From IMG/VR virus record IMGVR_UViG_3300046522_000748: 64,000 bases of DNA; one strand, written 5' to 3'. Both the position numbers and the translations under genes were made by a program. Below are positions 1,354 through 30,012 of this stretch, one piece after another. Source of the DNA: a virus (taxonomy: Duplodnaviria > Heunggongvirae > Uroviricota > Caudoviricetes). Under the pieces are notes generated by a model, which was given only the letters and a program-made list of their open reading frames with translations, was not told where the DNA came from and made no database searches. Position 1 is the first letter of the stretch. Every line of letters starts with the position of its first letter.

Positions 1354-1384
1354 TGGGTCTGCCTGTGAAATATGTGGGTTGCCT

Positions 1385-9530: not shown

Positions 9531-9802
9531 TGCGCCTTCCTTTGCGCTCACATCTCTGAGTCCTTCTGCTCATCTATTTCTTTTAGTCGCATTCGTATAA
9601 ACGCTCTGCGCTGCTCGCCAGTAAGTCCAGGTGGAAATGAAATTGTAGGGCCACTCATGGCCTCCTTCATTTTCTCAAGATCGAAATTAAAGGTGTATTC
9701 GGCGTCTGTATTAGCAGTCATTTGATATCCGTAACATTGATTTCTGTTTATAATGACAACAGATATTCTTAATTGCAAGCCAATACCTATGAGGAACTAA
9801 CA

Positions 9803-10264: not shown

Positions 10265-10276
10265 GGACTCTAAATC

Positions 10277-10729: not shown

Positions 10730-11016
10730 AGACGGCCAATGAGAGGTATCGATCCTCGAAGTCCTATCGGCAACGCTGGATTCTTCGTGAGTTGAATAAA
10801 ACAGGCCCAATCAGGGGTGATGATCCAGGTTTTGTGCTGGAGTTTGCTGAAGCGTGTTGTGCCAAGATTGAAGACGCGGCCAGTGGTACTAGATGTAGTC
10901 TACTCGATACCTATTTTCGGTATCTTCACAGCTTGGGGCAAATAAAGCGAGACATGCAGTGTGAGGCCACCAATGATGGTAAAATGCTGATTCATTGGTG
11001 GTACTCTACACATTAA
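10726..11016 (+). CDS. hypothetical protein (96 aa)
   Basis: ATGA overlap with the upstream gene. Confidence 0.35.
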   Translation: MKTANERYRSSKSYRQRWILRELNKTGPIRGDDPGFVLEFAEACCAKIEDAASGTRCSLLDTYFRYLHSLGQIKRDMQCEATNDGKMLIHWWYSTH

Positions 11017-11018
11017 AT

Positions 11019-11987: not shown

Positions 11988-12060
11988 TTATTTATCCTTT
12001 GTTCTTTATTGTAAAATGAAAAGGCGAAGTCCTTAACAGCTTCGCCTCCTAGTTGGTCAA

Positions 12061-12978
12061 TCATTCAGGTCGAAACAGAGCCGCTATTATGTCCCTATCC
12101 AGTGTAGGCAAATTGAGCCAATCGACGTGTGGGTTTTTGGGTTCAAGTTCACTCACAAAACATATTTCTGGCTCAGCATTCGCTGTCGCCTTTGTATGTT
12201 CTGCCAAATATACTTTTATTCTGCCTATTATATCTGTAATTTCAGAAGCATACGAATCGGTTAAATCGATAGATGTGCTCACGAGCCTGTGGTTCTTGAA
12301 GTAAATATCAAGTTGACCTTCCCATGCCCTTAAATAGAGAATTTTATTTACGTCATAAGTTTTAGCCTCTACTTCATTGAGAGCATTTTCTCGAAGTGCC
12401 TGAAAAAGAGCTATGACAAACAATCTCCAATCAGAAATGGACATTTCATTAACATGTACATAGGTCTCCCCAATCAGTATTTGGGTAATTCCTTTTTCAT
12501 ACGATTGTGCTGCGGCTTCAAATATTCCGCTCTTTCCTGGCGAAAGACTTAAAGGGTTCCCCTCATAATCAATTGATTTCGTTAGGGTGTTTGACAGTCT
12601 GCTTATAATTTTCTTGTTATTACTTTTGAAGATTTTTGACATGGACTCTTTAATGGATTCCACTATTTCTGGAGACAGGCGATCAAATTTTGAAGCTTTA
12701 ATTGCATAATCAATTGCGGAGATGTACCCGCTCAGTACACATCTATCCAACAGGTCGGCTGGAAATGAATAACCGTATTTGTAAAAATTCACTCGATTAC
12801 GAGTGTAGATCAAGAAAACCTTATCTTCTTCATCAAGCTCCTCGCCACTTGAGGCAATATTTTCTTCAGTGGTGTTGATTGCTCTTTCTAGGAAATCAAG
12901 GTCTGATGTTTTAGCATACTGTGGATAAATCTGATCTTTTAATATTTTCACGTGTTTAGATATCATGTGTCGCTCCAT
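12061..12978 (-). CDS. hypothetical protein, paralog 2 of the tandem pair (305 aa)
   Basis: Paralogous to 11019..11987. Both are visibly more AT-rich than their neighbours. Confidence 0.55.
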
Positions 12979-13078
12979 TGTTTTAGGTTAAATTATATAC
13001 CTCATCAGAAAGACTGCGCAATGCGCAAAGAGGCCAGCCGGGTTCCAGTCTTCTCGCTCACCTTGTTTGTCATTTTGA

Positions 13079-13107
13079 TTGACAGCTATCGCGCATATCG
13101 TTATAAT
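13079..13107 (+). promoter_or_regulatory. consensus sigma70 promoter (TTGACA-N17-TATAAT) for dcd
   Basis: TTGACA at 13079-13084, a 17-nt spacer, TATAAT at 13102-13107. Confidence 0.55.
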
Positions 13108-13140
13108 TTCCTCATAAATAAACAACTCACCGGATCGAAA

Positions 13141-13830
13141 ATGAGCATCAAGCCAGACAAGTGGATCAAACGACAGTGCATGACCCCCACCCATATTCGC
13201 CTGGATGGCGCCGGTAAGGCGCATTTCCACAATAGCGACCTTGGTTCTTTGCCGGTCGCCGAAACACTTTGGCACGAGGTTACTCCTGCTGAGCTTGAGC
13301 AATTCTGGCGTCCTATGATCGAGCCTTTCAACTCAGGTCAATGTCGCGGCAAGCCCGGCGAGCCATCAATCAGTTACGGCGTCAGCAGCTATGGCTACGA
13401 CGTTCGATGCACCAATAAATTCAAGGTGTTCACTAATATCAATTCGGCCACGGTCGATCCGAAAAATTTCAACCCAGAAAGCTTCGTGGACGTGGAGAGC
13501 GATGTCTGCATCATTCCTCCAAACTCGTTTGCGCTGGCCAGCACCGTTGAATATTTTCGGATTCCACGTAATGTCCTGACGATCTGCTTGGGGAAAAGCA
13601 CTTACGCTCGCTGTGGTATCATTGTAAACGTAACGCCACTTGAGCCGGAGTGGGAGGGTCATGTGACACTGGAGTTCTCCAACACCACGACTCTGCCTGC
13701 TAAAATTTATGCCAACGAAGGCGTTGCGCAGATGTTGTTTTTTGAGTCCGATGAAGAGTGCGAGGTTTCCTACAAGGATCGAAACGGAAAATATCAAGGT
13801 CAGCGCGGCGTGACGCTGCCAAAGGCTTAA
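13141..13830 (+). CDS. dcd: dCTP deaminase (dUTPase superfamily)
   Basis: The N-terminus resembles E. coli Dcd. Conserved trimeric dUTPase/Dcd blocks are present ([40 protein letters not shown]). The start is taken at MSIKPDKWI inside the longer track ORF. Confidence 0.7.
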
Positions 13831-13859
13831 GGTTTTTGATCTCAAACAAGGGTGACGGC

Positions 13860-14123
13860 ATGCTTAAGGGTCTTGTAAACGCGCTTGGATCGATTGGGGA
13901 AGGTTGGGCGAGCATCATGAATGCTTGTGCGGGCACCAGTCGCTTTGATGACTACAAACATCTGATGCCGCGTGGGCGTGACGTTAAGCTGCTGACGCCT
14001 GAAGAGGTTTTGAACGCTGATAAGACGGCGCTTCAGGGTGACCAAGGCGGTCTTGTTCAGTGGAAAGACATTGGGCAATGGAGTGATATCGGCAAGCAAT
14101 GGGGTGGCCGGGATGGCGACTGA
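13860..14123 (+). CDS. hypothetical small protein
   Basis: In-frame ATG (MLKGLVNA) within ORF 13758..14123. Confidence 0.3.
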   Translation: MLKGLVNALGSIGEGWASIMNACAGTSRFDDYKHLMPRGRDVKLLTPEEVLNADKTALQGDQGGLVQWKDIGQWSDIGKQWGGRDGD

Positions 14124-14670
14124 TGATCCGCTCTCTTATGTAGAGTGGGCCTTCTTGTCATGGGTGGCTGAGAGCCCTAAATCCCATTGTTTTTACATCA
14201 CGGCCAATAAGGTAATTTCGCAGTTCGAGTTCACCGCAGAAGCTGACAAGGCTGCACAGTCGTTGGTCAAGCGTGGCTTTTTCGATGCGACGAGTTATCG
14301 CTGCTACCGAATCAATAATGCTGGGCTGGGTGCCTTGAAGGACGCAGCAAAACCAGAATGGCAGACGCAAAATACTCCGGCATTCAGCGTCAATGAGCAT
14401 GTTGTGCTCAATTCCCTGTACGAGCGCGGTGCTGACTCGGAATGGAAAATGCTTACGTCGGTTGATGGGCTGAGTCGCGCAAAGCTGGTGTCCGCCTTGC
14501 AAGCGCTTGTTGCGCATGGTTTGGCCACGGCAACACCAAAGCCGGGCGCAGAGATTTACACACAGGAGAATGTACGCTGCCCTTCCCTGTTTAAGCATTC
14601 AAGGTTCGGTTGGCACTACATGCTGACCACTCACGGCGTTGAAAAGCTGTGTGAGCTGGATTTGGAATAA
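14113..14670 (+). CDS. hypothetical protein (start MATDDP)
   Basis: ORF 14038..14670; the start is placed so that it does not overlap the upstream gene. Confidence 0.4.
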   Translation: MATDDPLSYVEWAFLSWVAESPKSHCFYITANKVISQFEFTAEADKAAQSLVKRGFFDATSYRCYRINNAGLGALKDAAKPEWQTQNTPAFSVNEHVVLNSLYERGADSEWKMLTSVDGLSRAKLVSALQALVAHGLATATPKPGAEIYTQENVRCPSLFKHSRFGWHYMLTTHGVEKLCELDLE

Positions 14671-14711
14671 TTAACTTTCTGACAATGTGACAAATTAACG
14701 AGTATTCGATC

Positions 14712-15083
14712 ATGATTGGTGTTTTTCTGGATGACGAGCGCGTTCCAAGCGATGTCACTTGGGGTGTTTATCCGCAAGGTATCGTGTGGCGCATCGTTCG
14801 CAACTATGCGGAATTTGTGACGGCTGTTACTGAGCTTGGCAAAGATGAGTTCGTCATCAGCTTTGATCATGACCTTCAGGATTTCGACGCGGACGGCGCC
14901 GAAAAAACCGGTTACACCTGCATGAAAATGCTGGTAGACCTGTGCATCGATACAGGCGCGGAAATTCCTGTGTGTTTCTTCCACTCCAAAAACGGAATCG
15001 GTGGAGACAACATGGCTGGCTACTACCATAACGCGGTCAAACATTTTGGCCTGCGTCCAACTAAATTTGAGGATGAGAACTGA
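14712..15083 (+). CDS. hypothetical protein (123 aa)
   Basis: ORF; its stop abuts the next start. Confidence 0.4.
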   Translation: MIGVFLDDERVPSDVTWGVYPQGIVWRIVRNYAEFVTAVTELGKDEFVISFDHDLQDFDADGAEKTGYTCMKMLVDLCIDTGAEIPVCFFHSKNGIGGDNMAGYYHNAVKHFGLRPTKFEDEN

Positions 15084-15524
15084 ATGAAAGGCGCGGGCGG
15101 AACGGAAGGCGGTGTCGTTAAATTTCTTGTTGGCTTGATCATGATCGCAATCGGCGGCTACATGCTGCTCAACGCGATCCAGGTCACTTCCAGCTTTGGT
15201 CTGGGTTCACGCCTGTATGGCTTCAATGCCATGGGCAGCAACTATGGCCTCACCAGCGGCATGATCATGGTGCCCTTTATGTTTGGTGTGGGCATCATTT
15301 TCTATGACTACAAAAAATGGCTGGGCTGGGTGCTTGCTACAGGCTCCCTCGCCGCGCTGATCGTCGGTGTGATTTCGTCAATTCGTTTTACGTTCAGGAC
15401 GATGACATCTTTCGACCTGATCGTGATTTTGGTGCTGTTCGTGGGTGGAATCGGCCTATTTCTCAACTCATTGAAATCCGCCAAAATTGATGACAAAACG
15501 ACCAAGGAAGCTGGCGGAGCTTGA
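15084..15524 (+). CDS. small integral membrane protein (about 4 TM)
   Basis: Hydrophobic segments LVGLIMIAIGGYMLL, IMVPFMFGVGIIF, VLATGSLAALIVGVI and LIVILVLFVGGIGLF. Confidence 0.45.
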   Translation: MKGAGGTEGGVVKFLVGLIMIAIGGYMLLNAIQVTSSFGLGSRLYGFNAMGSNYGLTSGMIMVPFMFGVGIIFYDYKKWLGWVLATGSLAALIVGVISSIRFTFRTMTSFDLIVILVLFVGGIGLFLNSLKSAKIDDKTTKEAGGA

Positions 15525-15714
15525 AATGAGCCCGGTGAATTTCTACTTGGGTCTGGCGATGGTGCTGATGATTGGGTTTGTGGCAGGATACTTTGTTGCG
15601 CGCATGACTCAATCAAGCGGCCAGGGAAAGCAAGCGCCTCAAGTCCGTCGATCAGAACACCTGGGACGGGTCGCTTCAAGCCATCCGGCTCATGTCGCAA
15701 CCATTGATAATTAA
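15487..15714 (+). CDS. small single-TM protein
   Basis: Hydrophobic segment FYLGLAMVLMIGFVAGYFVA; overlaps the upstream gene. Confidence 0.3.
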   Translation: MMTKRPRKLAELEMSPVNFYLGLAMVLMIGFVAGYFVARMTQSSGQGKQAPQVRRSEHLGRVASSHPAHVATIDN

Positions 15715-15723
15715 GGGGTCAGC

Positions 15724-16116
15724 ATGACTGATAACACGTGTCCGGTATGTGAGGAAGGCTCACTCACTGAAGTGGTTTCGACCCATGAAGTCTCTCACAA
15801 GGGCCGATGCGGGGTTGTCGAGTCGTTTGGCGCAGTCTGTAGTTTCTGTGAGACCTATCAGGCTGGTGGTGATCATCTACGTGAAAATAAACACCGTATG
15901 CTTCGTTTTAAAGCGAGCATTGACTTCGGGCACAAGGCTGACGATATGCCAATGGATTTGCTGCGCGCCATTTATGATCGCAACCCGCATTTCTATGGCA
16001 TCCCTACCCATTTTTGGTCGATGAAGCTGAGCCGCACCCATGGAACATGTCGATTGCCGCGTGGGCTTTGGCGCCAGCAGTTTAAAATTGGCTGGAAAAA
16101 AGCCTCAAGCATGTAA
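15724..16116 (+). CDS. YgiT/MqsA-type zinc-finger protein
   Basis: N-terminal CPVCEEGSL...CSFC pairs are arranged as in the MqsA zinc ribbon. No MqsR-like partner is adjacent. Confidence 0.4.
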   Translation: MTDNTCPVCEEGSLTEVVSTHEVSHKGRCGVVESFGAVCSFCETYQAGGDHLRENKHRMLRFKASIDFGHKADDMPMDLLRAIYDRNPHFYGIPTHFWSMKLSRTHGTCRLPRGLWRQQFKIGWKKASSM

Positions 16117-16236
16117 ATTATCTGAAACAGTTTTGTAAAAAACGCCTCCATGTTCTGAATTGTCCAACAGCTTGTTGGACAAATTGTCTCTCTACGTCTT
16201 GAATCTCATCCTATATCGCCAATCACTTCTTTAAGG

Positions 16237-18009
16237 ATGTGCATTTTGGTCAGGATAAATGAATTTAAGACTTTGGGTCTTTTGGCGCTGACGGCGTGTT
16301 TTGCTTCCTCATCGAGTGCTGACTGGTATATCCCTGGAATCTCTGAGGGACTTAAGGTCATACATGAGGGCGGAAAAGTAATTGGTGTTATTGCTGGCGG
16401 CGCTGTGCAAGTTGTTGGCGGTGTGGTCGATGGTGCAGGTAAAATTATCGACGGAGCAGGTAAGGAGATCAGCATTTTTGGCCAGAACATCAACAGTGAA
16501 GGCAATATTGCAATCTCCAACGCCAGCCGAGAGTTTAACAAGGGGCTCTCCGACATCGCCAAGAATTTGGATATAGCTGGTCAGGACACCGAAAAAACGG
16601 TGGCCCAAGCGGGGAAAGATGTTGAGTCCAACATAGCGAAGTCTGGCAGAGATGTTGAGGACGCCGCGCATGCAGTCGGCACCTATGTGGATCGACAGAC
16701 TCAAAGCACCGTCAGAAATTACGAGAAAGCTTTCGACCGTATTCGTGAAGGGAAATTTGTGGATGCTGTTTGGCATGCCGCATTAGATCCGCTCAATGAT
16801 CAGCAAAAAAACATGGCTATGGCCTCCATGGAAAGTAGCCTCATTCGAACTGTTGGCCAGACTGCGGCGAGTGCCTATGGTGGCCCCCAAGGTGCCGCAG
16901 CTTATGCAGCATGGCTCACCTACCACCAAACGGGCGGAAACATCAATGCGGCGATCCAGGTTGGTTTAATCACTGGCATAACGGCGCAAGCTTACGGTGA
17001 TTTAAATAAGCACATGACAGTTAATGAATACAACATCTATCAAAAGACACTGGTCGTCTCTACGGTAGGCGCTGTGGGTGTTGCAGCGGCTGGCGGCTCG
17101 CCGGACGATATTAAAAACGGCTTCCTTGCGGCTGGCGCCATGGTGTTGGTTCAGGATCATTACAAGAATAAAACGAGCAAGGACTTGGGTAAGCAGAAAG
17201 AGTTACAGGAGTCACAGATGCCATCAAGGGATGGTTATCCCTATTGCACCACAGGCTATGCGGGAGCCTGTACGCCTGTGCCTGAAGATGCAATCCTGGA
17301 ACGCGGTAAAGACGGCCTTCCCTCCAAATTGGATCGGACGAAAATTGATGTTCGAGTGGATTCTGTCGGTGTACAGGGCAGCGCTGGCCTGGGTGGTGAA
17401 TTTTCTAAGCCCATGATAATTGCTTCCAAGATCCCTGGCGTACAAGGGATGTCAGTCATGCACGATCAGTGGGTTCTTGATTATCGCCTTGAGGGTGCTG
17501 CAATACCAACGACAATCGTACCCGCCATCATTGTCTACTACACGGGAACCGGAGCGCCGTACTACGATCTACAGCGTCAAACCGTAATTGAGAAAACGCT
17601 CAGGGCTCAGGTCAAGGCTGATGCTGGAAAAGCCCCTGAAGATCCAAGCGCACAGCTAACTCCTGAGCAGATTGCAGCCGTAAGTCCTGTAGTGAATGAG
17701 ACGAACTTCACTCGCCCAGATCCTACTTCCATCGTGGATTCGTATGTGTGCGCGCTTCCACAGACGGCCAATCAGATGGTGGTCGAGGAGTTTGACACAC
17801 CTAATCCATTTGTCTGCCGTGTGCTGTATCTCAACGGCGCCGCGCAAACTTCCAAGCCGATCTGGTATGCCCGGCATGAGACCGGCTTTTGCGCAAGGGA
17901 AGCCGCAAAGCTATCGAAAAAGCTGGAATGGCTGGGAATGAAGTGCATTCAACAGGATGGCAGCAAGAAGCTGCTGGCAGAGAGTAAGGTGGCTCAAGCC
18001 AGTCCTTAG
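16237..18009 (+). CDS. secreted protein with amphipathic repeats (590 aa)
   Basis: N-terminal signal peptide (LGLLALTACFASSSSA). The start codon is uncertain. Confidence 0.5.
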   Translation: MCILVRINEFKTLGLLALTACFASSSSADWYIPGISEGLKVIHEGGKVIGVIAGGAVQVVGGVVDGAGKIIDGAGKEISIFGQNINSEGNIAISNASREFNKGLSDIAKNLDIAGQDTEKTVAQAGKDVESNIAKSGRDVEDAAHAVGTYVDRQTQSTVRNYEKAFDRIREGKFVDAVWHAALDPLNDQQKNMAMASMESSLIRTVGQTAASAYGGPQGAAAYAAWLTYHQTGGNINAAIQVGLITGITAQAYGDLNKHMTVNEYNIYQKTLVVSTVGAVGVAAAGGSPDDIKNGFLAAGAMVLVQDHYKNKTSKDLGKQKELQESQMPSRDGYPYCTTGYAGACTPVPEDAILERGKDGLPSKLDRTKIDVRVDSVGVQGSAGLGGEFSKPMIIASKIPGVQGMSVMHDQWVLDYRLEGAAIPTTIVPAIIVYYTGTGAPYYDLQRQTVIEKTLRAQVKADAGKAPEDPSAQLTPEQIAAVSPVVNETNFTRPDPTSIVDSYVCALPQTANQMVVEEFDTPNPFVCRVLYLNGAAQTSKPIWYARHETGFCAREAAKLSKKLEWLGMKCIQQDGSKKLLAESKVAQASP

Positions 18010-18051: not shown

Positions 18052-18264
18052 TCAGTGAACGGTAGGAACCTTTGCGCCCATCAGCTTCAGCAGTGCCACA
18101 GTCGGCTCAGCAGGTGCGTCCAGGATCTCTTGCAGTCGATCCATCGCCTCATCAGAGAGCACGATTCTTTCAGAGTCGGATGGATCAAGGTGACCCATTC
18201 CCAGCTCCACATAGGTCACATCAGGATCACCTGCGACCGGCTTTTTATCTTTTTTACTGCTCAT
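18052..18264 (-). CDS. hypothetical small acidic protein
   Basis: 70-aa ORF in the gap between plus-strand genes, with a GAGA-type Shine-Dalgarno. Confidence 0.3.
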   Translation of the reverse strand: MSSKKDKKPVAGDPDVTYVELGMGHLDPSDSERIVLSDEAMDRLQEILDAPAEPTVALLKLMGAKVPTVH

Positions 18265-19446: not shown

Positions 19447-21294
19447 GTGTGTAGAATAAAAATAGCGCTTGGATTAGTGCTGACATTAGCGGCAATGCCC
19501 GCCATTTCTGAATATCGTTATAATTTTACTTTATCTTCCGGTGGATTGGGGGCTCCTCCCCCTCCAGGCAACGGCGAGTGGGTTCCAGCGAACTCGGAAT
19601 TCGGCGAGTGGATTGTTAAAGGCGATATTTACGGTTGTTCAAACTGGTCGCCCTCTCCATCGTCTCAAGGCAAAGGGGTTGTTTTTGAGCAGATAGCAAA
19701 TGATTGCTCACTTGAACAGAATTCTTGGGAACAAAAATACAAGAAGAATACAGTCACAGGTGAGCTTGCCACTGACGGGCCTCGACTTCCTTTGAGCAAG
19801 GTGATCACGACAACTGATTCGCGAGAAGCAATAGGCATCTTGGAAAATTGGCTACCTTTTGATCCATCCTATACCAATTGGATTGACACGAACTCGCTAT
19901 ATGGCTGCACCTCATGGTCGCCTAACCCTGCTACGTTCACTGTAACGAGCAACTTCACCCAAACCTCAAATACCTGTAAAACAGATCAAGAACGTCAGCG
20001 TCAGGAGCGTGAACAGGAGAAGTTCACTGCCGAAATACGCAATGTGGGTTCTCCGATTGTCGAGCAGCAGACTGCGACAAATCAAACGGCTACACGTCCT
20101 TATTCCGTCATTTTGGGTGCCTGGGCGGCTGTGGGTGAGTCCTACGCATGTTCTAATTGGTCGCCAGCTGCGGAAACTGTCGGTAAAGGCATCAAGTTCA
20201 CACAGAGCGCCACTGATTGTAAGCAGGATCAAACACGTACCCGTTCCGAGTCATTTCAAGACCACAAGACCGGTCAGATCGAGCATGTTTCATCTACAAA
20301 TGAAACTCGCACGCTATCTAATCAGGCTGGAAGCAAGGAATCGACTGGCACAATGGAGCAGTGGGTTGCCACCACGCCGACGTATTCTGCATGGGTGACC
20401 ACAAATGCTCAGTATGCTTGCAGTAATTGGTCTCCGACAGGTTCAAGCAAATCTGTTACGACGACGTTCACACAAACTGCTACCGACTGCAAAACAGACC
20501 AGACTCATAATCGACAAGATCGCGAGCAGGAAAGCACCACCTTAGAAATCCGTGACAAGGGCGTTCCTGTCGCTGAAAATCAAACATTGACAGCACAATC
20601 TGCTACCCGTAACTACACAGTTACAGTGGGCTCATGGGCTGACAGTGGGGCCAAATACGCCTGCGCAAATTGGTCGCCGTCTCCGGCCACGATTCCGATG
20701 GGACAAAACTTCACTCAAACAGCGACTGACTGCAAGCAGAACCAAACACGTGCTCGTGCTGAGTCCTATATCGATCACAAAACCGGTGTAACTACTGCCG
20801 TTGTGGTTCCAAACGATACCCAAGTCTTATCGAATGTTACCAATACGCAAACTGCGGTTGGGCAAATGAACTCATGGAGCGTGAAAGATATTGAGTTCAT
20901 TGATGCCGATGATGACAGCATCACTTTCAGTTGCTCTGGATCGAGCTGCGCGTTGACCGATTATCAGACTATGCGATCAAGCCGCACAGGCAGCACACAA
21001 TCCATCAGCCTTATCCTGAATGCGGCTGCTTACTATCAGGGGGCTGCCAACGACGCTCCGGCACTTTCTTACAACGTCGCAATTTCCGGCATGAGTGGTG
21101 CCTCCTGGAGTGGCTCGTGTTCCTATCCGCGTGGATCTTTCCCTTGCCTCAGTATCAACACTACAAACGTAGCTGCTGGATCGTATTCCCCATCGATAAC
21201 AGTGGCAGTAACCAAGCCAGGAGGCTCGGTGCAAACACTGAACCTGTCTGTTCCCAACTGGACGGTTTACCCCAATGACGGCTGGTTGGATTGA
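19447..21294 (+). CDS. secreted tandem-repeat protein (615 aa; ~55-aa Cys-containing repeats)
   Basis: Signal peptide (ALGLVLTLAAMPAISEY). Repeated Y.CSNWSP...FTQ.A.DCK.DQTR.R... units shared with ORF 25200..28862. Probable GTG start with an AGGGG Shine-Dalgarno. Confidence 0.6.
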   Translation: MCRIKIALGLVLTLAAMPAISEYRYNFTLSSGGLGAPPPPGNGEWVPANSEFGEWIVKGDIYGCSNWSPSPSSQGKGVVFEQIANDCSLEQNSWEQKYKKNTVTGELATDGPRLPLSKVITTTDSREAIGILENWLPFDPSYTNWIDTNSLYGCTSWSPNPATFTVTSNFTQTSNTCKTDQERQRQEREQEKFTAEIRNVGSPIVEQQTATNQTATRPYSVILGAWAAVGESYACSNWSPAAETVGKGIKFTQSATDCKQDQTRTRSESFQDHKTGQIEHVSSTNETRTLSNQAGSKESTGTMEQWVATTPTYSAWVTTNAQYACSNWSPTGSSKSVTTTFTQTATDCKTDQTHNRQDREQESTTLEIRDKGVPVAENQTLTAQSATRNYTVTVGSWADSGAKYACANWSPSPATIPMGQNFTQTATDCKQNQTRARAESYIDHKTGVTTAVVVPNDTQVLSNVTNTQTAVGQMNSWSVKDIEFIDADDDSITFSCSGSSCALTDYQTMRSSRTGSTQSISLILNAAAYYQGAANDAPALSYNVAISGMSGASWSGSCSYPRGSFPCLSINTTNVAAGSYSPSITVAVTKPGGSVQTLNLSVPNWTVYPNDGWLD

Positions 21295-21325
21295 TTCTGT
21301 TTAATTGATGCTGTCGCATAAGACA

Positions 21326-21350
21326 AAAACTCGCTAATTGCGAGTTTTTT
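21326..21350 (+). terminator. rho-independent terminator (bidirectional shape)
   Basis: AAAAACTCGC taatt GCGAGTTTTTT. Confidence 0.55.
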
Positions 21351-21360
21351 GTTAATAATA

Positions 21361-21388
21361 TTGACAGTTTTATCGTGCGGATTATAAT
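21361..21388 (+). promoter_or_regulatory. consensus sigma70 promoter (TTGACA-N16-TATAAT)
   Basis: TTGACA at 21361-21366 and TATAAT at 21383-21388, followed by a ~130-nt leader before the operon. Confidence 0.5.
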
Positions 21389-21519
21389 GTCATTAAGGAT
21401 GGCCACCTTCCGCTCCCGCCTGAAAAGGTACGGTAAACCCGCTGAGAATCAAACACCTCACTCATAGCATTCAATGAATCTGTGCGTGGCAAGGGGAGCC
21501 GCTACAAGTTAACGGATTC

Positions 21520-22284
21520 ATGGAGAATGATATGAGCAAGTCTTTTTCAACGTATTCTGATTATTCAGCCTTTGCCCATTCAGTTGTGCGTGCCTCCGAT
21601 GGCCGATTGGGCATTAATGGTAGTGGGCTGCTCTCTTTGTTTGCAAAAGCACGTGGGTTTGATTCACCGCAAGCTTTTAAAGCATCTTTCCCGGTTTCAC
21701 CGGAAGCAGCCCAGTCGGGTGTGGGCCTGACTCACCCTGCGAACTCTCCGCGAGAAAAGATCAGTGCAGAATTTCGATCATCTTTGCATGAGTTCTTCTT
21801 TTCGGAATACGAAGTGTCGATGAAGGTTCGTGCCGCATTGACCCGTATTATTTTTCACGCGGGTGCGCTCCGTAATAATCACGTTCGGAATGAGTTGTGT
21901 GCAGGCTTGGACAATCGGTTCATTGATGAACTTTTCTCCTACCCTCTCACTTCCAGGGAATTTGATCTTGATTACATCGTGAAGGTGTATGGCGATCAGG
22001 CTTATAAGGATCTGTGCAACTCACAAAACGTGGCACATATGCGCTTCACTGATGGCTTGTTGTTCAGGGTGCAGAAAGGCGCTGCGGAGCTGGCATTTCG
22101 GGACATGTTGGATGAAGTGGTGATCTTGCTTCAGCAATTGCTGAGTTCGCCGCTTGAGCGTCAGGCCATCATCAATGGCAACAACGGAAGCGCGGATTCT
22201 GAAAGGCTTTTGCATAATGAGGCTCTTCACCGTCGTATCACTGACATCCTTAATAGCGTTTCAATCAGCGAGTACATGGATTAA
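21520..22284 (+). CDS. hypothetical protein (the ATG at 21532 with GGAG Shine-Dalgarno may be the real start)
   Basis: First gene of the operon 21520-25118. Confidence 0.5.
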   Translation: MENDMSKSFSTYSDYSAFAHSVVRASDGRLGINGSGLLSLFAKARGFDSPQAFKASFPVSPEAAQSGVGLTHPANSPREKISAEFRSSLHEFFFSEYEVSMKVRAALTRIIFHAGALRNNHVRNELCAGLDNRFIDELFSYPLTSREFDLDYIVKVYGDQAYKDLCNSQNVAHMRFTDGLLFRVQKGAAELAFRDMLDEVVILLQQLLSSPLERQAIINGNNGSADSERLLHNEALHRRITDILNSVSISEYMD

Positions 22285-22377
22285 CTGCTGGCCCCTCCTT
22301 GCGAGGGGCTTGCTGCTTTCGCTAAATGAGATCGAATTTCGGATAAACTATTTGAATAATCTACATGGAGTAATCGC

Positions 22378-23007
22378 GTGAATACTGAAGAAAATATGGC
22401 GGGTTTGGCTGGATCTATCTACCCAATGAAATTCAGCGCCAATGCCCTTCGCTCAAAAATTAACGATCCCTCTATTCAGAAAGCGCTTCGCCGCTTTGAG
22501 AAAAGCGAGCAACCGGCTACAAACGTCAGCCTCACTTGGTATGAGTGTGTGATGAAAGAGCTTGATGCCGCACCTGAAGAAGTAATTCAAGAGCATCATA
22601 TTATGTATGCAGAGGCTCGAAAAGCTCTGGCCGAAATGGATAATCCTTCTTGGGTTCGTGTGAGCACGGAACTGTTGAAGACCTTGCTCAGCTTTATTGT
22701 TGTTCGTCGTTCTGTCGAAGGTGTCACTGTTCCTGGCCCTGATTGGGAGCTTTTGCGCAGGCTGATTGCGATGGGTGATACTGGCGCAGTGTGTGAGGCC
22801 CAGAAAGCGATTGATGGCGAGTTCGGGTGGGATAAGTCGCAATGGGATCAATTGAATTTGGGGGTGCCCGAAAATGTAGCTATCTCCAGCTCCAGCAGAA
22901 TGGAGGCGTTTATGCCGCAGCGTGAGCCTATGCGCCCGCTCTCCAGCACAGCTGATGGCGTTTATCCGGTTCGCTCTAAGTTTTTTGAGCGAGGTGAGAA
23001 GGCATGA
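22378..23007 (+). CDS. hypothetical protein (209 aa)
   Basis: GGAG Shine-Dalgarno 8 nt before the GTG/ATG start. Confidence 0.45.
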   Translation: MNTEENMAGLAGSIYPMKFSANALRSKINDPSIQKALRRFEKSEQPATNVSLTWYECVMKELDAAPEEVIQEHHIMYAEARKALAEMDNPSWVRVSTELLKTLLSFIVVRRSVEGVTVPGPDWELLRRLIAMGDTGAVCEAQKAIDGEFGWDKSQWDQLNLGVPENVAISSSSRMEAFMPQREPMRPLSSTADGVYPVRSKFFERGEKA

Positions 23008-23216
23008 TTCGACGCCTGTTCACGAAACTGATGATGCGGTTTTTATTTAAGAAGAGGCTGGAAAACGTCAGTAATCCGTTTGCGTTGCCGCTAACGAGAC
23101 AGTCAAAAAATTTTATGAAAAAGGCGCATGACTCCGTAATAACGGACATGCTTAATCCAAAGAATGTAGATACTTCTCGCCATAGGGCTTTCTGGAGCAG
23201 TTTCAATGACAAGTAA
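23004..23216 (+). CDS. hypothetical small basic protein
   Basis: Fills the gap and overlaps both neighbours at start and stop. Confidence 0.25.
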   Translation: MIRRLFTKLMMRFLFKKRLENVSNPFALPLTRQSKNFMKKAHDSVITDMLNPKNVDTSRHRAFWSSFNDK

Positions 23217-24003
23217 TGACAAGCTTAATGGTCACCCTCCACGTTCAGGGCGCCCTGTGAAACCATCGACTGCAACGTTCGACATTGACGTTTACCCGGT
23301 TATTCACCACCTCGATGCGGCCACCACGCTTGAGCAGGCTGACATCGCTTTTGAGGCTAAGGCCGATGGCGTGTTTCTAATCTCACATCACCGGAACGAC
23401 AGCGCGCTTGTGCCGCTGGCTCATCATATCAAGGCAAAGTACCCAGACAAGCAAGTTGGCTTGAACTTCCTCTCCCAAGGCCCTCTGAAGGCATTGGACG
23501 CTGTTGATATCGCGGGACTGGACATGATGTGGGGTGACTACTGTGGCGTCACCTCAGGTGAGCCGGAAAAGCTGGCGCATGATCTTGACATTCGCAACGA
23601 TGAAATTGGCATGAAGAAAATCTTTGCCTCCGTTGCCTTCAAGTATCAAGCTGAAGACGCCGACCCGCCCCAGGCTGCACGCAATGCCAAAATCTTTGGC
23701 TTTATTCCTACGACCAGTGGCGCAGGAACCGGCGAAGCACCGACCGTGGACAAGATCAAGGCCATGAGCGCAGCTGTTGATGGAAATTTGGCGGTGGCCA
23801 GCGGGATGACGGTGGAAAACATCACCGATTACGCGCCCTATCTTCGCTACGTTCTGGTGGCTACCGGGGTGTCGTTGGACGACCATCATTTCGATTTTGA
23901 GCGTCTGTATCGCTTCATTGCGTTGGCCAAAAAAGCCAAGACAAATCACTTTGTCACCAATGTAATTGGGACTGCTGTAGGACAGCAGAGAGGCGGTGAG
24001 TAA
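23206..24003 (+). CDS. BtpA/SgcQ-like TIM-barrel (phosphate-binding barrel) protein
   Basis: C-terminal glycine-rich phosphate-binding block (IPTTSGAGTGEAPTVDKI...LAVASGMTVENI) and an overall beta/alpha pattern typical of BtpA-family barrels. Confidence 0.4.
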   Translation: MTSNDKLNGHPPRSGRPVKPSTATFDIDVYPVIHHLDAATTLEQADIAFEAKADGVFLISHHRNDSALVPLAHHIKAKYPDKQVGLNFLSQGPLKALDAVDIAGLDMMWGDYCGVTSGEPEKLAHDLDIRNDEIGMKKIFASVAFKYQAEDADPPQAARNAKIFGFIPTTSGAGTGEAPTVDKIKAMSAAVDGNLAVASGMTVENITDYAPYLRYVLVATGVSLDDHHFDFERLYRFIALAKKAKTNHFVTNVIGTAVGQQRGGE

Positions 24004-24848
24004 TGTCGGTTAAGGCGAAGTTTCTGATCGACCGGTATGTCGTCGAGGATAGCTATCACGATGACCTTTATGAGCAGTTGACGCTGCTCGGATTTGAGGT
24101 CGTCTGTGATGGCTACACCTATTTTACCCAGGAGCCTTCGACCAAGCATTTCGATGATGATGACTGTGTTGTTCTATACGGCAGCATGAGCTTTGTGGAG
24201 CAATTTGGCCGTGGGCGCGGGTTTATTCCTGGCGCTTACTACACCAAGAGTCGCTACCTGTGTTCACAGTACATGCACAGACTGCCGGAAGGCATCATGG
24301 CCAACGATGACTATCTGATGCTGCCTTTTGGTGAGTTTGTTCGCCGTCACGAGTCGATTTATCAGTTGTTCAAAAGCAACAAGATTTTCATTCGACCCAA
24401 TTCTGGACACAAAACATTCACGGGCCTTCCGATTCATATTGAGGAATTTACTCACGAAATCAATACGTTGAAGAAGCTTCTTAACGTATCGGATGACACG
24501 TTGATTTTGATAGCGTCCTGTAAGCAAATCACGGCGGAATACCGATTCTTCGTGGTCGGTGGCAAGGTAATTACTGGCTCCAGGTACAAGCTTGGAAATG
24601 AGCTGTCCATCGAGCCGGTCATTGATGAGGCGTGCCTGGAGGTGGCTAATCGCGTTGCCGAGCACCCTTGGCAGGTTGATTTGGCCTATGCGTGCGATGT
24701 CGGCATTGTCGATGGAAAACCGAAGGTCATCGAACTTAATGCGTTTTCTACATCTGGCCTCTATGCCGTTGATATTCCTAGCTTGTTTTCTGCCGTGGCT
24801 GACATCGCTGTGGCTGAATGGCAAGGCGACGTTTCACTGACTGATTAA
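24003..24848 (+). CDS. ATP-grasp family ligase
   Basis: ATP-grasp signature blocks KIFIRPNSGHKTFTG, YRFFVVGGKVITGSRY and KVIELNAFSTSGLY. TAATG overlap with the upstream gene. Confidence 0.5.
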   Translation: MSVKAKFLIDRYVVEDSYHDDLYEQLTLLGFEVVCDGYTYFTQEPSTKHFDDDDCVVLYGSMSFVEQFGRGRGFIPGAYYTKSRYLCSQYMHRLPEGIMANDDYLMLPFGEFVRRHESIYQLFKSNKIFIRPNSGHKTFTGLPIHIEEFTHEINTLKKLLNVSDDTLILIASCKQITAEYRFFVVGGKVITGSRYKLGNELSIEPVIDEACLEVANRVAEHPWQVDLAYACDVGIVDGKPKVIELNAFSTSGLYAVDIPSLFSAVADIAVAEWQGDVSLTD

Positions 24849-24863
24849 TTAAAAGGACAAGCA

Positions 24864-25118
24864 ATGCCCGGCCCCCATAACCACCTCTGCCTGAAACATG
24901 GTGGAGACCGTGAGACGCCCGATGATTTCTGGCTGTGTGATACCTGTGCCCGTAACCACATCAACAACTGTGCCTGTGGAGCGCCTGCTCGCTACTTTGG
25001 CGAGGCTCTGATGTGTGCCGTGAGCTGTGAGCAGTGCAAGGAATTTGTGATGTATGTAGGCTTTGACAAGGACGTTCGCAAGCTGTGGAACGAAGGCGTT
25101 CGAGGCAATGTCGAGTAA
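24864..25118 (+). CDS. Cys-rich small protein (84 aa, 8 Cys in CxxC/CxC/CxxxCxxC spacing)
   Basis: Possible Zn-binding protein or a substrate peptide of the ATP-grasp ligase. Confidence 0.45.
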   Translation: MPGPHNHLCLKHGGDRETPDDFWLCDTCARNHINNCACGAPARYFGEALMCAVSCEQCKEFVMYVGFDKDVRKLWNEGVRGNVE

Positions 25119-25155
25119 ACGAGAAACGAGAAATGAGCGTCTTTTGAAGCATTCA

Positions 25156-25190
25156 TAAAAAAGGCCTTACACAGTAAGGCCTTTTTGTTT
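25156..25190. terminator. bidirectional rho-independent terminator
   Basis: AAAAAAGGCCTTAC acag GTAAGGCCTTTTTGTTT, between convergent genes. Confidence 0.6.
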
Positions 25191-25199
25191 ACGCCATTA

Positions 25200-28100
25200 T
25201 TATTGGTATCTAACCACGATGTACGGATATCCGTTGGTTCCGCTCAGGTAGCTGGCGTTTCCAAGGGTGTCAACACCATACATCCAAATGGCTGGCCCTT
25301 TGTTTGAGCCGCTCATGGCGATTGCGTACGTCAGGGTGTCGCCCTTCAGTATTGTAATGGCGCTGCCGAGTTGAAACAGGATGTTGGCGTTATCTAAGCT
25401 GCCAACTACGTTGGCGGTTCCGGTCGTGCAGCCGCCGCTAGAGCCGCACACATTGAGTGTCATCACGCCGTTAGCTGTATTGTTGTAGTTGCCAATCAGC
25501 ACCGATAGCTGAGTGATCACGCCTTTCTGCATTTGGCTGATTGTGCCGGAGTAGTTCACACCATTGGTTATTTGCAGGGCTGTGTTCGTACCACTTGGGC
25601 CTGTCAGCGGCACTACGCCATGGGCAGAAGGATCATCCACAACGAGGGTTTTGTTGGCAGTCTTTGTCACACCCACGGCGTTTTGCCCGGTGATTGTGTA
25701 GGTGTAGCTGCCAGCAACTGTTGGTGTAATAGCCTTCGAGGTTGCGGTGCCCACATTCACACCTGTTACCGGAACTCCAGAGTTATTCGAGCTTCCGGTG
25801 ATGGTGTACGAGGTTACTCCAGTGCCAGACCAGTTCAGTGTGAAGGCTTGTCCCGTAAACGGGGTGGTTGAAGCCGATATGGTGCCAATAACTGGGTTAT
25901 CGACAACCGTCACATCAATTGATTTCAGGTTGCCTACGTTTGTTACGCCATTCAGCGTTTTGGTCGCTGTCGCGTAATAGGTCGTTGTGCCTGCCACACT
26001 GGCAGCCGAAGGCGGAAGTGTTGCTGCGGCACTGTTGGCTGAGTTGCGGCCTTGAAGCAAAGCACCACTGCTAATGCCGGTGCCCGCAAACGTAAGGGCG
26101 GCTGATGGCGAGACGCTGATGGCAGTAGAAACGCCGTTGACATTCAATCCACCGATGGAGGGTGCCGCTTCAGTTGCTACGACTCGTGTAGCTGTTGCGG
26201 ACACACCAATGGCGTTCGTTGCAGTAAGCGTATAGACGTAAGATCCTGCCGCCGTTGGTGTTGCGGTAGTGCTGCTACCGACCACGGCTTGGTTGGTTGT
26301 TGAAAAACCAGAGCCTGCGGCACTGCCACGTAGCGCGTAGCTTGTGACATTCGTTCCGCTCCAGGTCAGTGTAAGCGGCGTATTGATGAAGGCTGCCGTT
26401 GGGGCTGATAGCGAGGCTGTTGGCGCGGCTGCTGTGCCAGTAGCTGCGCGGGTGTCCGCTTGGCTTCTGAGAGTTTGTGTTTCATTTGTCGGCGTGATCG
26501 CAACAACCTGTCCCGTCAGATGATCCACATATGACTCATTGCGGGTTCTGGATTGATCCAGAGAGCAGTCTGTAGCGTTTTGGGTAAATGCCTCGCCCAT
26601 AGCAACAGTTGTTGTAGCCGGAGACCAGTTGGTGCATCCGTATTTAGCGCCACTGTCTGTCCATGTACCCAGGGTCACGGTATAGCTGCGTGTTGCTGTT
26701 TGACCAGTCAAGGTCTGGCTTTCAGCAACCGCTGTGCCTTTGTTGCGGATAGCCAAGGTGGTGCTTTCCTGTTCACGATCCTGGCGATTGCGCGTCTGAT
26801 CTGTTTCACAGTCGCTTGCGGTCTGCGTGAAGGTTGACGTAGCGGTTTTGCTCGACGGTGCTGGCATCCAGACTGAGCAGCCGTACAAAGCTTTGGTGCT
26901 TGTCCAAGCGGTGTAAGTTGGCGTCGTAGCCGCCCACGTTTCTTTGGTGCCGGTCGCAGGTTGGGTATTGCTCTGCCCCGTCAATGTCTGGGTTTCGCCT
27001 GCGACAGTGACCGCCACCGTAGAGCCGGTTTTATGATCGACGTAGGACTCGGCACGGGTGCGCGTTTGATCCTGCTTGCAGTCAGTGGCTGTCTGCGTAA
27101 AGCTTTGGCCTGTGGTAACCGTCGATGGTGCTGGTGACCAGTTCGAGCAAGCGTACTTCGCGCCATTGTTAGTCCAGGCGCCCAGCGTGACGGTGTAGTT
27201 TCGTGTAGCTGATTGAGCGGTCAGCGTCTGGTTTTCAACAACAGGCGTGCCTTTGTTGCGGATGGCCAGCGTAGTGCTTTCTTGCTCGCGATCCTGGCGA
27301 TTGCGAGTTTGATCGGATTCACAATCGCTGGCGGTCTGCGTAAAAGTTGCTGTAGCGGTTTTGCTCGACGGTGAGGGCGCCCATATTGAGCAACCGTACA
27401 AGGCGTTGGTGTTCGTCCAGGCTGTATAGGTTGGCGTAGTAGCAGCCCACGTTTCTTTGGTGCCGGTGGCGCCTTGCGTATTGCTTTGGCCGGTTAGCGT
27501 CTGTGTTTCACCAGCAACAGTGACGGCCACAGTTGTGCCGGTCTTGTGATCGACGTAAGACTCAGAACGAGTGCGCGTTTGATCCTGCTTACAGTCGGTG
27601 GCGGTCTGGGTGAAGCCTTGACCCACGGTGACGGTCGATGGAGCAGGAGACCAGTTAGAGCACGCGTATTTAGCGCCGCTGTTGATCCAGGTGCCCAGTG
27701 TCACGGAGTAGCTGCGGGTGGCGGTCTGGCTGGTCAGGGTCTGGCTTTCAACAATGGGTGTCCCTTTGTCGCGGATCTCGCCAGTGTTTTGCTCTATCTC
27801 ACGATCCTGACGGGCACGCGATTGATCGGTCGTGCAGTTTGAGGCGGTTTGACTGAACGTAGTGGTGGTCGTTTTGCTGGCGCCAGTCGGCGACCAGTTG
27901 GAACACGCATTTAGAGCGCTTGTGTTGACCCAGGCAGTGTACGTCGGCGTTGTGGCAGACCATTGTTCCATCGTGCCGGTAGATTGCTTACTGCCGCTCT
28001 GGTTGGTCAGTGTGCGGTATTCATTCGGCTTGGTGACCTGCTCATTTTCACCGGTTTTGTGATCTTTGAATGATTCAGCTCGGGTTCGTGTCTGATCAAC

Positions 28101-28862
28101 CTTGCAGTCGGTAGCGGTTTGGGTGAAGGTCGTGCCCTTGCCTATGGTGCTTGCGGCTGGTGACCAGTTCGAGCAGGCGTAGGACTCGCCCACCGCTGTC
28201 CAGCTCCCTAACGTAACCGAGTAAGGTCTGGAGGCATTTTGGTTGCTCAGTGTTTGCTGTTCCGTCACAGGCTCGCCGCTGTTGCGTACCTCTTCAGTGA
28301 AGCGTTCTTGCTCCCTGTCTTGGCGTTGACGTTCTTGATCCGTTTTACAGCTGCTGGAAGTCTGGGTAAAGGTGTTGGTGGTGGTGAATGTTGATGGATT
28401 CGGTGACCACGCCGTACAGCCATACAGGGCGTTTGTATCCGTCCAACTGGTGTAGGTCGGTGCAATGCCCAGCCAATTTTCCAGTACGCCAATCTCATCA
28501 CGCGTTTTTGAGGCGCTGATGGATTTTGATTCTGTGTAGGCGGCGTTTGGAATTGGCTCAACCACACCCGTTTTGTCATTTCGACGTTGTGGATGAACTA
28601 ACCTTGTTTGATCTTGTTTGCAGTCATCCGCTTTTTGTACAAAAGAAATCCCCTTCCCAATGCTTGAGGTTGAAGGAGACCAATTGGAGCAGCCATAGAT
28701 CTCCCCGGAAGATTTCCAGGCGTCATAAGTCGGCTCTACTTTTGTCCACCCATTGCCGGTGGTAGTGGTTAATGTGTAAAGATATCGGTAGTCATTGGCT
28801 TGCGTGAGCGCAGCCTGACTACTGAGTCCAGCTAAAACAAGTAAATGAGGTAGTAGCTTCAT
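25200..28862 (-). CDS. giant secreted tandem-repeat protein with C-terminal Ig-like region (1220 aa)
   Basis: Signal peptide MKLLPHLLVLAGLSSQAALTQA. About nine ~55-aa Cys-pair repeats arranged as ~110-aa super-repeats (TYTAW..NALYGCS.W.P...TFTQTASDC..DQTRNRQDREQE...YACSNWSP...FTQTATDCKQDQTRTR.ESYVDHKTG). C-terminal Thr/Ser/Gly-rich beta-type region. Confidence 0.65.
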   Translation of the reverse strand: MKLLPHLLVLAGLSSQAALTQANDYRYLYTLTTTTGNGWTKVEPTYDAWKSSGEIYGCSNWSPSTSSIGKGISFVQKADDCKQDQTRLVHPQRRNDKTGVVEPIPNAAYTESKSISASKTRDEIGVLENWLGIAPTYTSWTDTNALYGCTAWSPNPSTFTTTNTFTQTSSSCKTDQERQRQDREQERFTEEVRNSGEPVTEQQTLSNQNASRPYSVTLGSWTAVGESYACSNWSPAASTIGKGTTFTQTATDCKVDQTRTRAESFKDHKTGENEQVTKPNEYRTLTNQSGSKQSTGTMEQWSATTPTYTAWVNTSALNACSNWSPTGASKTTTTTFSQTASNCTTDQSRARQDREIEQNTGEIRDKGTPIVESQTLTSQTATRSYSVTLGTWINSGAKYACSNWSPAPSTVTVGQGFTQTATDCKQDQTRTRSESYVDHKTGTTVAVTVAGETQTLTGQSNTQGATGTKETWAATTPTYTAWTNTNALYGCSIWAPSPSSKTATATFTQTASDCESDQTRNRQDREQESTTLAIRNKGTPVVENQTLTAQSATRNYTVTLGAWTNNGAKYACSNWSPAPSTVTTGQSFTQTATDCKQDQTRTRAESYVDHKTGSTVAVTVAGETQTLTGQSNTQPATGTKETWAATTPTYTAWTSTKALYGCSVWMPAPSSKTATSTFTQTASDCETDQTRNRQDREQESTTLAIRNKGTAVAESQTLTGQTATRSYTVTLGTWTDSGAKYGCTNWSPATTTVAMGEAFTQNATDCSLDQSRTRNESYVDHLTGQVVAITPTNETQTLRSQADTRAATGTAAAPTASLSAPTAAFINTPLTLTWSGTNVTSYALRGSAAGSGFSTTNQAVVGSSTTATPTAAGSYVYTLTATNAIGVSATATRVVATEAAPSIGGLNVNGVSTAISVSPSAALTFAGTGISSGALLQGRNSANSAAATLPPSAASVAGTTTYYATATKTLNGVTNVGNLKSIDVTVVDNPVIGTISASTTPFTGQAFTLNWSGTGVTSYTITGSSNNSGVPVTGVNVGTATSKAITPTVAGSYTYTITGQNAVGVTKTANKTLVVDDPSAHGVVPLTGPSGTNTALQITNGVNYSGTISQMQKGVITQLSVLIGNYNNTANGVMTLNVCGSSGGCTTGTANVVGSLDNANILFQLGSAITILKGDTLTYAIAMSGSNKGPAIWMYGVDTLGNASYLSGTNGYPYIVVRYQ

Positions 28863-29936: not shown

Positions 29937-30012
<76 letters not shown>

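Follow-up and report, generated by a model that had tools for sequence, protein, structure and literature searches.

The staphylococcal proteins SasG and Aap carry G5-E rods (PDB 3TIQ, 4WVE, 5DBL, 4FUM and 8DEO) in which two alternating subtypes form a contiguous, elongated beta-sheet with very little hydrophobic core, a terminal domain is projected and the repeat number varies between alleles. The thrombospondin type 1 repeat (TSP_1, TSP1_2) is a small, Cys-containing extracellular beta module of approximately 60 amino acids (aa) with six Cys, three disulfides, a WxxW motif and conserved Trp/Arg ladders, which occurs in tandem and functions in binding. Among Gram-negative bacteria, immunoglobulin (Ig)-like repeat adhesins (invasin/intimin with Big_1 domains and giant RTX proteins) present a stalk of tandem beta-domains that ends in a binding module. 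Diversified surface-binding proteins are also encoded by plasmids, as with the mating adhesins (PilV shufflon variants of R64 and the enterococcal aggregation substance). The present analysis concerns two genes, here called repA and repB, in a 64,000-nucleotide (nt) stretch of the IMG/VR virus record IMGVR_UViG_3300046522_000748 (the window). Both encode proteins built from a Cys-pair repeat module which was absent from every domain library searched and had no significant solved structural relative. On balance, repA and repB probably represent an uncharacterised family of Sec-exported stalk-and-head binding proteins that travel as polymorphic cargo of giant plasmids. The proposed architecture, which consists of Sec export, one disulfide per unit, a thin rod and a variable C-terminal module, is held with high confidence. 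Most members of the family reside on giant plasmids of Pseudomonas and Vibrio, where a replicon holds several copies.

Anatomy of the two repeat proteins

Both repA and repB were intact open reading frames (ORFs), convergent around a group of intervening genes (Table 1). An earlier note on this DNA had described two proteins with signal peptides, and this was borne out, as read from the sequence, by N-termini of Sec-type layout, in which a hydrophobic core stands between a basic n-region and a cleavage site of small residues (AIS before EY in repA and TQA before ND in repB), with no lipobox. The same signal-sequence layout was kept across approximately 70 homologs. The repA start codon is GTG with AGGGG located 6 nt upstream, and the ortholog P0002, with 84% identity, has the 615-aa start as well. 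For the identical protein P0001 (599 aa), the JGI gene call places the start at an internal ATG (19495 instead of 19447), by which the signal sequence is lost. repB is the representative (P0130) of its own cluster. The C-termini end in ...NDGWLD and ...IVVRYQ, and the Cys counts are even in both mature proteins.

Table 1. Coordinates of repA, repB and other features of the window
Feature	Position	Strand	Details and basis
repA, exported repeat protein (615 aa)	19447..21294	+	signal sequence, 5 Cys-pair units and 144-aa tail; intact ORF
repA signal sequence (aa 1-21)	19447..19509	+	MCRIKIALGLVLTLAAMPAIS, followed by EY; read from sequence
repA rod, 5 units (aa 22-471)	19510..20859	+	Cys pairs 64/87, 154/177, 235/258, 325/348, 406/429
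repA C-terminal tail (aa 472-615)	20860..21291	+	4 Cys, orphan domain
repB, exported repeat protein (1220 aa)	25200..28862	-	signal sequence, 9 units, 3 Ig-like domains and jelly-roll head; intact ORF
repB signal sequence (aa 1-22)	28797..28862	-	MKLLPHLLVLAGLSSQAALTQA, followed by ND; read from sequence
repB rod, 9 units (aa 23-808)	26439..28796	-	Cys pairs 58/81 through 743/766; alternating 81/90 aa
repB three Ig/PKD-like domains (aa 809-1075)	25638..26438	-	weak Pfam PKD match, E=0.018
repB C-terminal head (aa 1076-1220)	25203..25637	-	Cys 1139/1145, predicted beta jelly-roll
Sigma-70 consensus promoter, TTGACA-16-TATAAT, upstream of intervening genes	21361..21388	+	perfect match to consensus; consensus match only
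Intervening genes: 254-, 209- and 70-aa unknowns, BtpA-like, ATP-grasp, 84-aa Cys-rich	21520..25118	+	Pfam, PHROG 7313
BtpA-like TIM-barrel protein	23206-24003	+	
R2K ATP-grasp	24003-24848	+	PHROG 7313
GC-rich hairpin flanked by A-run/T-run, between stops of 84-aa gene and repB	25157..25187		read from sequence
rIIB-like (425 aa) and rIIA-like (781 aa) pair	76-3730	-	PHROG E 2e-61 and 1e-71
dCTP deaminase-like gene (dcd)	12952-13830	+	N-terminal extension of ~120 aa
123-aa ORF	14712-15083	+	cREC_REC domain match; precomputed annotation of identical contig L003
590-aa neighbour	16237-18009	+	lipobox-like N-terminus
70-aa ORF	18052-18264	-	weak TacA1 antitoxin-like Pfam match; precomputed annotation of identical contig L003
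Methyl-accepting chemotaxis protein	37724-39373	-	full-length (HAMP + MCPsignal)
Six tRNA genes (Thr, Cys, Asn, Ser, Met, Gly)	29937-30012, 40080-40156, 40399-40475, 41117-41204, 44840-44916, 44924-44997	all -	

A motif scan identified 5 units in repA and 9 in repB, all with the pattern W..W..C.xW.P...F.Q...C..DQ.R.R and a C-x22-C pair (Cys spacing exactly 23), which agreed with the Cys-pair motif first noticed. The residues W, W, C, W.P, Q, C and Q.R of each unit were invariant in an alignment of 48 two-unit segments (di-units) from the family. Unit size was 81 or 90 aa in strict alternation, and the repeat of approximately 55 aa given previously corresponds to the conserved core and not to the full unit. 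Odd and even units formed two subtypes (55-88% identity within and 32-48% between subtypes), and the super-repeat measured 171 aa or 513 nt and not approximately 110 aa. The super-repeats had also been called nearly identical in DNA and recently expanded. Their identity over 513 nt was 56-73% (best 90-nt window 86%, longest exact repeat 23 nt), with no sign of recent expansion in these values. Tandem Repeats Finder reported nothing, the 513-nt period being above its limit and the copies too divergent. As judged from their sequences, repA and repB are paralogs with matching unit order; residues 125-295 of repB were 72% identical to residues 130-300 of repA, and repB has extra internal di-units. 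An N-terminal (F/Y)RYNYTL motif was considered as an anchoring or donor strand and dropped, for it aligns with the TR.Y.V.L strand that opens every long unit and would more simply be the first strand of the rod.

Searches in domain libraries supported the initial statement that the repeat is not a named domain. No rod-unit match was found in Pfam for repA, repB or single units even at E<=10, no Pfam family was matched by more than two of the 48 di-units, and the G5 family was matched by neither the proteins nor the di-units. NCBIfam, PHROGs and PADLOC gave nothing relevant for the repeat proteins, and a search of the di-unit profile against PDB sequences (hmmsearch) gave zero matches. The only resemblance to a described family was to TSP1_2, below the threshold, in the homologs P0012 (26.0 bits) and P0017 (23.5 bits; cut-off 27) and in 1 of the 48 di-units (E 3.7e-4). 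These faint matches bear on the idea that the proteins are secreted effectors for eukaryotic hosts, with the repeats as thrombospondin-type-1-like mimics that bind host matrix or cell-surface molecules. The W...W...R.R pattern of the units recalls the Trp/Arg layers of thrombospondin repeats, and the family has hosts among plant pathogens (P. syringae, P. amygdali) as well as clinical Pseudomonas and Vibrio. However, even at E<=10 the units of the window matched no TSP1 model, each has two Cys instead of six, and the family was also present in soil, sediment and water isolates and metagenomes. An effector role is therefore considered improbable.

Distribution of the repeat family

A word-indexed search produced 146 homologs, none of them with a functional name. 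Contigs of 0.5-1.4 Mb carried many of the homologs; the sources of these contigs were P. amygdali, P. syringae pv. actinidiae, P. luteola, P. taiwanensis and P. shirazensis. A single homolog was a fragment from a Hafnia metagenome-assembled genome. With tblastn, 103 plasmids were matched (92 from Pseudomonas and 9 from Vibrio), and all 30 of 30 among the matches listed were larger than 300 kb. The family was found at 14 places in pMPPla107, where WP_054068201.1 is one of its members, and Vibrio plasmids of 306-370 kb had 7-12 such places. When 1.84 billion representative proteins (clusters defined at 50% identity) were searched exhaustively with a profile, 712 clusters were retained at E<=1e-3; with stricter thresholds, 481 remained (E<=1e-10) and 195 (E<=1e-30). 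The family is real but small. A profile scan of genome contigs added a single distant locus in Pseudomonas entomophila, and a metagenome scan added 11 relatives. In this way, one coherent exported family, with 3 to 14 copies per element, was picked out of megaplasmid genes that are mostly hypothetical, and it links otherwise unrelated giant plasmids of Pseudomonas and Vibrio.

Family members had 2-11 units, in which the two Cys were 23 (533 units) or 22 residues apart (91 units). Repeat number thus does vary among relatives, a point that the earlier note had proposed to check. In nearly all members the signal sequence led straight into the first strand of unit 1. The C-terminal tails varied. 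The commonest was 70-100 aa with two Cys; other types were 127 aa, 144 aa (the repA type, found only in repA, P0001 and P0002), 151 aa (F5/8 type C, which in P0115 passes the Pfam cut-off), 303 aa (Big_1/Invasin_D3, P0034) and approximately 412 aa (the repB type, four sequences), while some members had no tail. Big_1/Invasin_D3, PKD, Y_Y_Y or F5/8 type C domains followed the rod in some members. The longest members reached 3,139 aa with up to 35 matched stretches; long members added Ig-like repeats only, and those scanned had no known domain of another kind, such as an enzyme, a toxin or an autotransporter. In addition, a single Cys-pair unit was located after long Ig-like arrays near the C-terminus of the otherwise unrelated exported proteins P0125, P0127 and P0128, because of which the unit is regarded as a shuffled, independently moving module.

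The MPF_I-typed 429-kb megaplasmid pSE5388-PER of P. aeruginosa (NZ_MT598646.1; L017, 7707-9537) carries a 274-aa member named 'Ig-like domain-containing protein', which lies 146 nt downstream, on the same strand, of a gene for a prepilin-type N-terminal cleavage/methylation protein. On a 4.3-Mb contig of P. taiwanensis (L021, 8807-9127 and 12573-16637), a member lay between a thioredoxin-fold gene and the gene of a Big_3/DUF4165 repeat protein of 1354 aa, in a block of genes without domain matches, which may be an integrated megaplasmid-like region.

Predicted structure of the rod and the heads

The AlphaFold2 model of repA residues 130-300, produced with the 48-sequence alignment, had a mean predicted local distance difference test (pLDDT) score of 95.2, with 156 of the 171 residues at 90 or above. 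This two-repeat model, of the kind that had been suggested in the earlier note, was elongated and consisted of beta structure throughout, with strands of 24 and 20 residues; the junction between the units was crossed by one strand (75-94). The rod regions contained 12-15% ILVMF compared to 30% in other ORFs of the window, and 39-43% T+S+Q+N; the low aliphatic and Phe content is what would be expected for a thin sheet without a conventional core. No solved structure matched the di-unit model significantly, and the best, weak matches were the staphylococcal SasG/Aap rods.

The heads were less uniform. The model of the repB head was a jelly-roll resembling carbohydrate-binding modules (CBMs). A homology search with this head alone gave zero matches, and a search with the whole repB tail gave 8 proteins only, which share its Ig-like part; arrays homologous to the Ig-like array of repB were present in P0121-P0127. 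For the repA tail, zero Pfam matches were found at E<=10. Overall, the predicted rod and the CBM-like, jelly-roll end domain fit the adhesin or receptor-binding stalk that had been offered as one option.

Gene gain, loss and length variation in close relatives

Three close relatives of the locus were compared. One (L003) was identical to the window. The second (L004) had the same neighbourhood and a repA ortholog with 84% identity, and had 68 bp where the 3.9-kb repB segment sits in the window. The third (L023) was without repA and had a positional ortholog of repB (P0029, 877 aa) with 5 units instead of 9, in which the signal sequence and the 411-aa tail were the same. The shared flanks of L004 and L023 were 94-97% identical, yet each carries only one of the two genes. 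Because these two elements differ despite near-identical flanks, repA and repB are each regarded as dispensable, recently gained or lost, and variable in length. Both genes thus behave as dispensable, length-variable cassettes. The convergent pair described as bracketing an operon is indeed convergent in the window; the bracketing is not conserved. Differences in gene presence and repeat number between near-identical elements point to ongoing selection on reach or specificity. Among the related plasmids, pMPPla107 is conjugative and genetically tractable.

A pair of inverted homologous arms of 443 nt was present in repA (20344-20786) and repB (27025-27467), 71% complementary and situated around the intervening genes. 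Recombination between the arms would invert the operon, and the inverted haplotype was not seen in L003, L004 or L023.

Replicon of origin

The window had been taken for a phage-like genome, an impression that arises because it contains rIIA/rIIB-like genes and six tRNA genes. Exact look-ups showed that the rIIA, chemotaxis protein, 590-aa neighbour, ATP-grasp, repA and repB proteins were all located on a single JGI contig of 1,136,521 bp. Two paralogs, P0003 with 11 units in 998 aa and P0005 with 9 units in 890 aa, were on the same contig, and a further paralog, P0053 (476 aa), was listed with it as the longest contig, resulting in at least 5 paralogs on the contig. The top four plasmid matches of the ATP-grasp protein were P. 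silesiensis pPL1 (1.168 Mb, 49%), pBASL58 (904 kb, 43%), pMPPla107 (972 kb, 39%) and the 910-kb Pseudomonas plasmid FeN3W (38%). The same four plasmids were the top matches of the dcd DNA (76-79% identical), which was the sole DNA-level similarity to these ~1-Mb Pseudomonas megaplasmids within approximately 8 kb (9500-17400). A Sel1 protein of pMPPla107 was 35% identical to that of the window, and its gene is located approximately 6 kb from the ATP-grasp gene of pMPPla107. Megablast, run with the locus and with 40-60 kb as queries, matched no phage or plasmid.

Plasmids of the pMPPla107 family are approximately 1 Mb in size, hold 44-54 tRNA genes, have hypothetical genes as the bulk of their content and are lower in GC than their host (PMC6482414). 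The source of the window shared these traits, with a ~1-Mb replicon, many tRNA genes (6 in 64 kb), a GC content of approximately 49% and mostly hypothetical genes, and the genes common to the window and pMPPla107, pBASL58 and relatives were the ATP-grasp, dcd, Sel1 and repeat-family genes, at high divergence. We conclude, from this gene content, that the window is apparently part of a divergent pMPPla107-like megaplasmid. The Enterobacteriaceae pMEGA plasmids were considered as an alternative group and rejected. These plasmids are all described as very low in GC (26% in pMEGA4; bioRxiv 10.1101/2025.09.30.679422), compared to approximately 49% in the window.

The suggestion that repA and repB belong to the virion of a very large phage, as decoration, fibre or receptor-binding proteins, is highly improbable. 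Besides the rIIA/rIIB-like genes and the tRNA genes, it draws on a Phage_g100-like protein in the window, on the membership of the ATP-grasp protein in PHROG 7313 and on the resemblance of the repB head to capsid and tail-spike jelly-rolls. However, tblastn with the repeat as query matched 0 of 50,697 phage genomes, pattern scans of IMG/VR for the repeat found zero contigs, and the repeat proteins had no PHROG match, while relatives were found on plasmids including pMPPla107. Capsid, portal, terminase and tail genes were not seen among the approximately 40 ORFs scanned in the window, which covers 64 kb of the 1.14-Mb contig. In addition, the replicon measures 1.14 Mb, and we know of no phage genome above approximately 0.74 Mb. 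The rIIA of the window had at most 33% identity to any phage copy, and rIIA-like ATPases were present on other large plasmids (e.g., Variovorax plasmids of ~800 kb), although the rIIA of the window was not found on pMPPla107-family plasmids. The presence of rIIA/rIIB-like genes plus tRNA genes is thus insufficient to call the window a phage, and the error of context is corrected here. Of the two findings that the earlier note had named as refuting its view, a bacterial or plasmid setting was borne out, but the repeat maps to no known family.

Neighbouring genes

The intervening genes between repA and repB were conserved in L003, L004 and L023. The hairpin downstream of the 84-aa gene is likely, from its sequence, to be a bidirectional terminator, and an equivalent hairpin was present in L004. 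R2K ATP-grasp or BtpA-like genes were also found near family members in the unrelated contigs L008, L011, L016 and L021. The R2K ATP-grasp genes (L008, 3025-3810; L021, 511-1245) were 0.3-9 kb from repeat-family genes, with 24% identity for the L008 copy, and the BtpA-like genes of L011 and L016 had 53-55% identity. In pMPPla107 and pPL1, the ATP-grasp and BtpA-like genes were not near family members, and either repeat gene can be missing beside an intact operon. A functional link between the repeat proteins and the BtpA-like and ATP-grasp proteins is considered less likely than a shared neighbourhood; the intervening genes are probably outside the repeat-protein system.

The remainder of the window consisted mostly of ORFs without a Pfam match, in addition to genes for a methyl-accepting chemotaxis protein, the dcd-like deaminase, a radical SAM protein, an SPFH protein and the Sel1 protein. 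A methyl-accepting chemotaxis gene was also present near a family member beside plasmid replication genes in P. shirazensis (L022, 335-kb contig). The six tRNA genes were scattered among hypothetical genes, which fits the tRNA-rich habit of pMPPla107-family megaplasmids. The 590-aa neighbour had a lipobox-like N-terminus (LLALTAC) and a Gly/Ala/Val-rich region, and its domain search was without a match; its only plasmid relatives (27-35%) were hypothetical proteins on Rhizobium, Sinorhizobium, Shinella, Ralstonia and Enterobacter plasmids.

Proposed function

In the proposed explanation, the cleavable signal sequence would take each protein across the inner membrane, and one disulfide (C-x22-C) per 81- or 90-aa unit would close in the oxidising periplasm. 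The alternating unit types would then join head to tail, with long beta-strands spanning the boundaries, to give a thin, rigid and hydrophobic-poor rod. Rod length would follow from the 5 units of repA and the 9 units of repB, and the rod would hold the variable C-terminal module away from its origin. This end module would consist of three Ig-like domains and a carbohydrate-binding-type jelly-roll in repB and of the orphan 144-aa Cys-containing domain in repA. Its likely job would be to bind a glycan or a surface, within a reach set by the rod length. The analysis shows how the two proteins are built, where the family occurs, that the context is of plasmid type, that the rod is modelled with confidence and that the cassettes are polymorphic. 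The formation of the disulfides, the rigidity of the rod, transport beyond the periplasm and the binding function are inferred.

The proteins may also stay inside the envelope as periplasm-resident structural or binding proteins, Sec-exported and oxidised, which would act as spacers, as scaffolds for plasmid-encoded envelope machines or as peptidoglycan or glycan binders. A Sec-type signal sequence is their sole export signal, one disulfide per unit suits the periplasm, and the family members scanned were free of domains for translocation across, or anchoring in, the outer membrane. However, rods of 9-11 units, and members with up to 35 matched stretches, would seem too long for a periplasm of ~25 nm. 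The F5/8 type C, invasin D3 and CBM-like heads are typical of extracellular binding, and length variation together with several copies per replicon looks like surface diversification. A periplasmic role is for these reasons judged unlikely, though it is the likeliest of the alternatives.

Four points weigh against the binding-stalk explanation. No outer-membrane route was identified in the form of an autotransporter barrel, a C-terminus of the type I secretion system (T1SS) type, a lipobox or an LPXTG motif, and a periplasmic stay is possible. The repB head was modelled with moderate confidence only (pLDDT 68 from 4 sequences), and the jelly-roll fold serves many functions. The disulfide geometry and the length per unit are inferred. 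Finally, all database names of the family were either 'hypothetical' or 'Ig-like domain-containing', none of which supports a function.

A bolder version of the explanation would make the family an undescribed superfamily, a disulfide-stapled, core-poor beta-rod that giant conjugative plasmids deploy as a polymorphic, cassette-like surface recognition set. This version is doubtful at present. If it were true, rod length and interchangeable heads would set which cells and surfaces the host sticks to, such as mating partners or plant and animal surfaces.

Comparison with known systems

The thrombospondin type 1 repeat resembles the present unit as a tandem, Cys-containing beta module with conserved Trp and Arg. 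However, the units here are 81-90 aa with two Cys 23 apart and Trp residues 10 and 12 apart, and thrombospondin repeat structures were not among the structural matches of the di-unit model. Identity with this repeat was rejected, as the size, the six Cys and the WxxW motif all fail, the units of the window are unmatched and the structures are absent.

The Gram-negative Ig-like repeat adhesins share the plan of a stalk with a terminal binding module, although the rod module of repA and repB is not Ig-like and their signal sequence is an ordinary Sec type. An inverse-autotransporter barrel, a LysM domain, an RTX domain and a T1SS signal were not found in the family members scanned. The plasmid-encoded mating adhesins offer a functional analogy, with no sequence or structural relationship to the repeat proteins. 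pMPPla107 and an IncP-2-type plasmid were both typed MPF_I; no shufflon or prepilin motif was found in the window.

The closest analogy is with the SasG/Aap rods, which have in common with the predicted structure the two alternating subtypes, the contiguous elongated beta-sheet, the very small hydrophobic core, the projected terminal domain and the variable repeat number. Compared to SasG/Aap, the present proteins have no Pfam G5 match, and each unit has a Cys pair, conserved Trp and a Q.R.R(Q)DRE strand. They also differ in their Gram-negative hosts, the lack of an LPXTG anchor, the several plasmid-borne copies and a head that is C-terminal and not N-terminal. The likeness would be one of analogy and not of membership. 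The confident rod prediction without a significant solved match makes the module a good target for structure determination, as a possible Gram-negative counterpart of the SasG/Aap rods. Overall, the design of a rod plus a binding head is of a familiar kind, and the repeat module itself is undescribed in the domain libraries searched.

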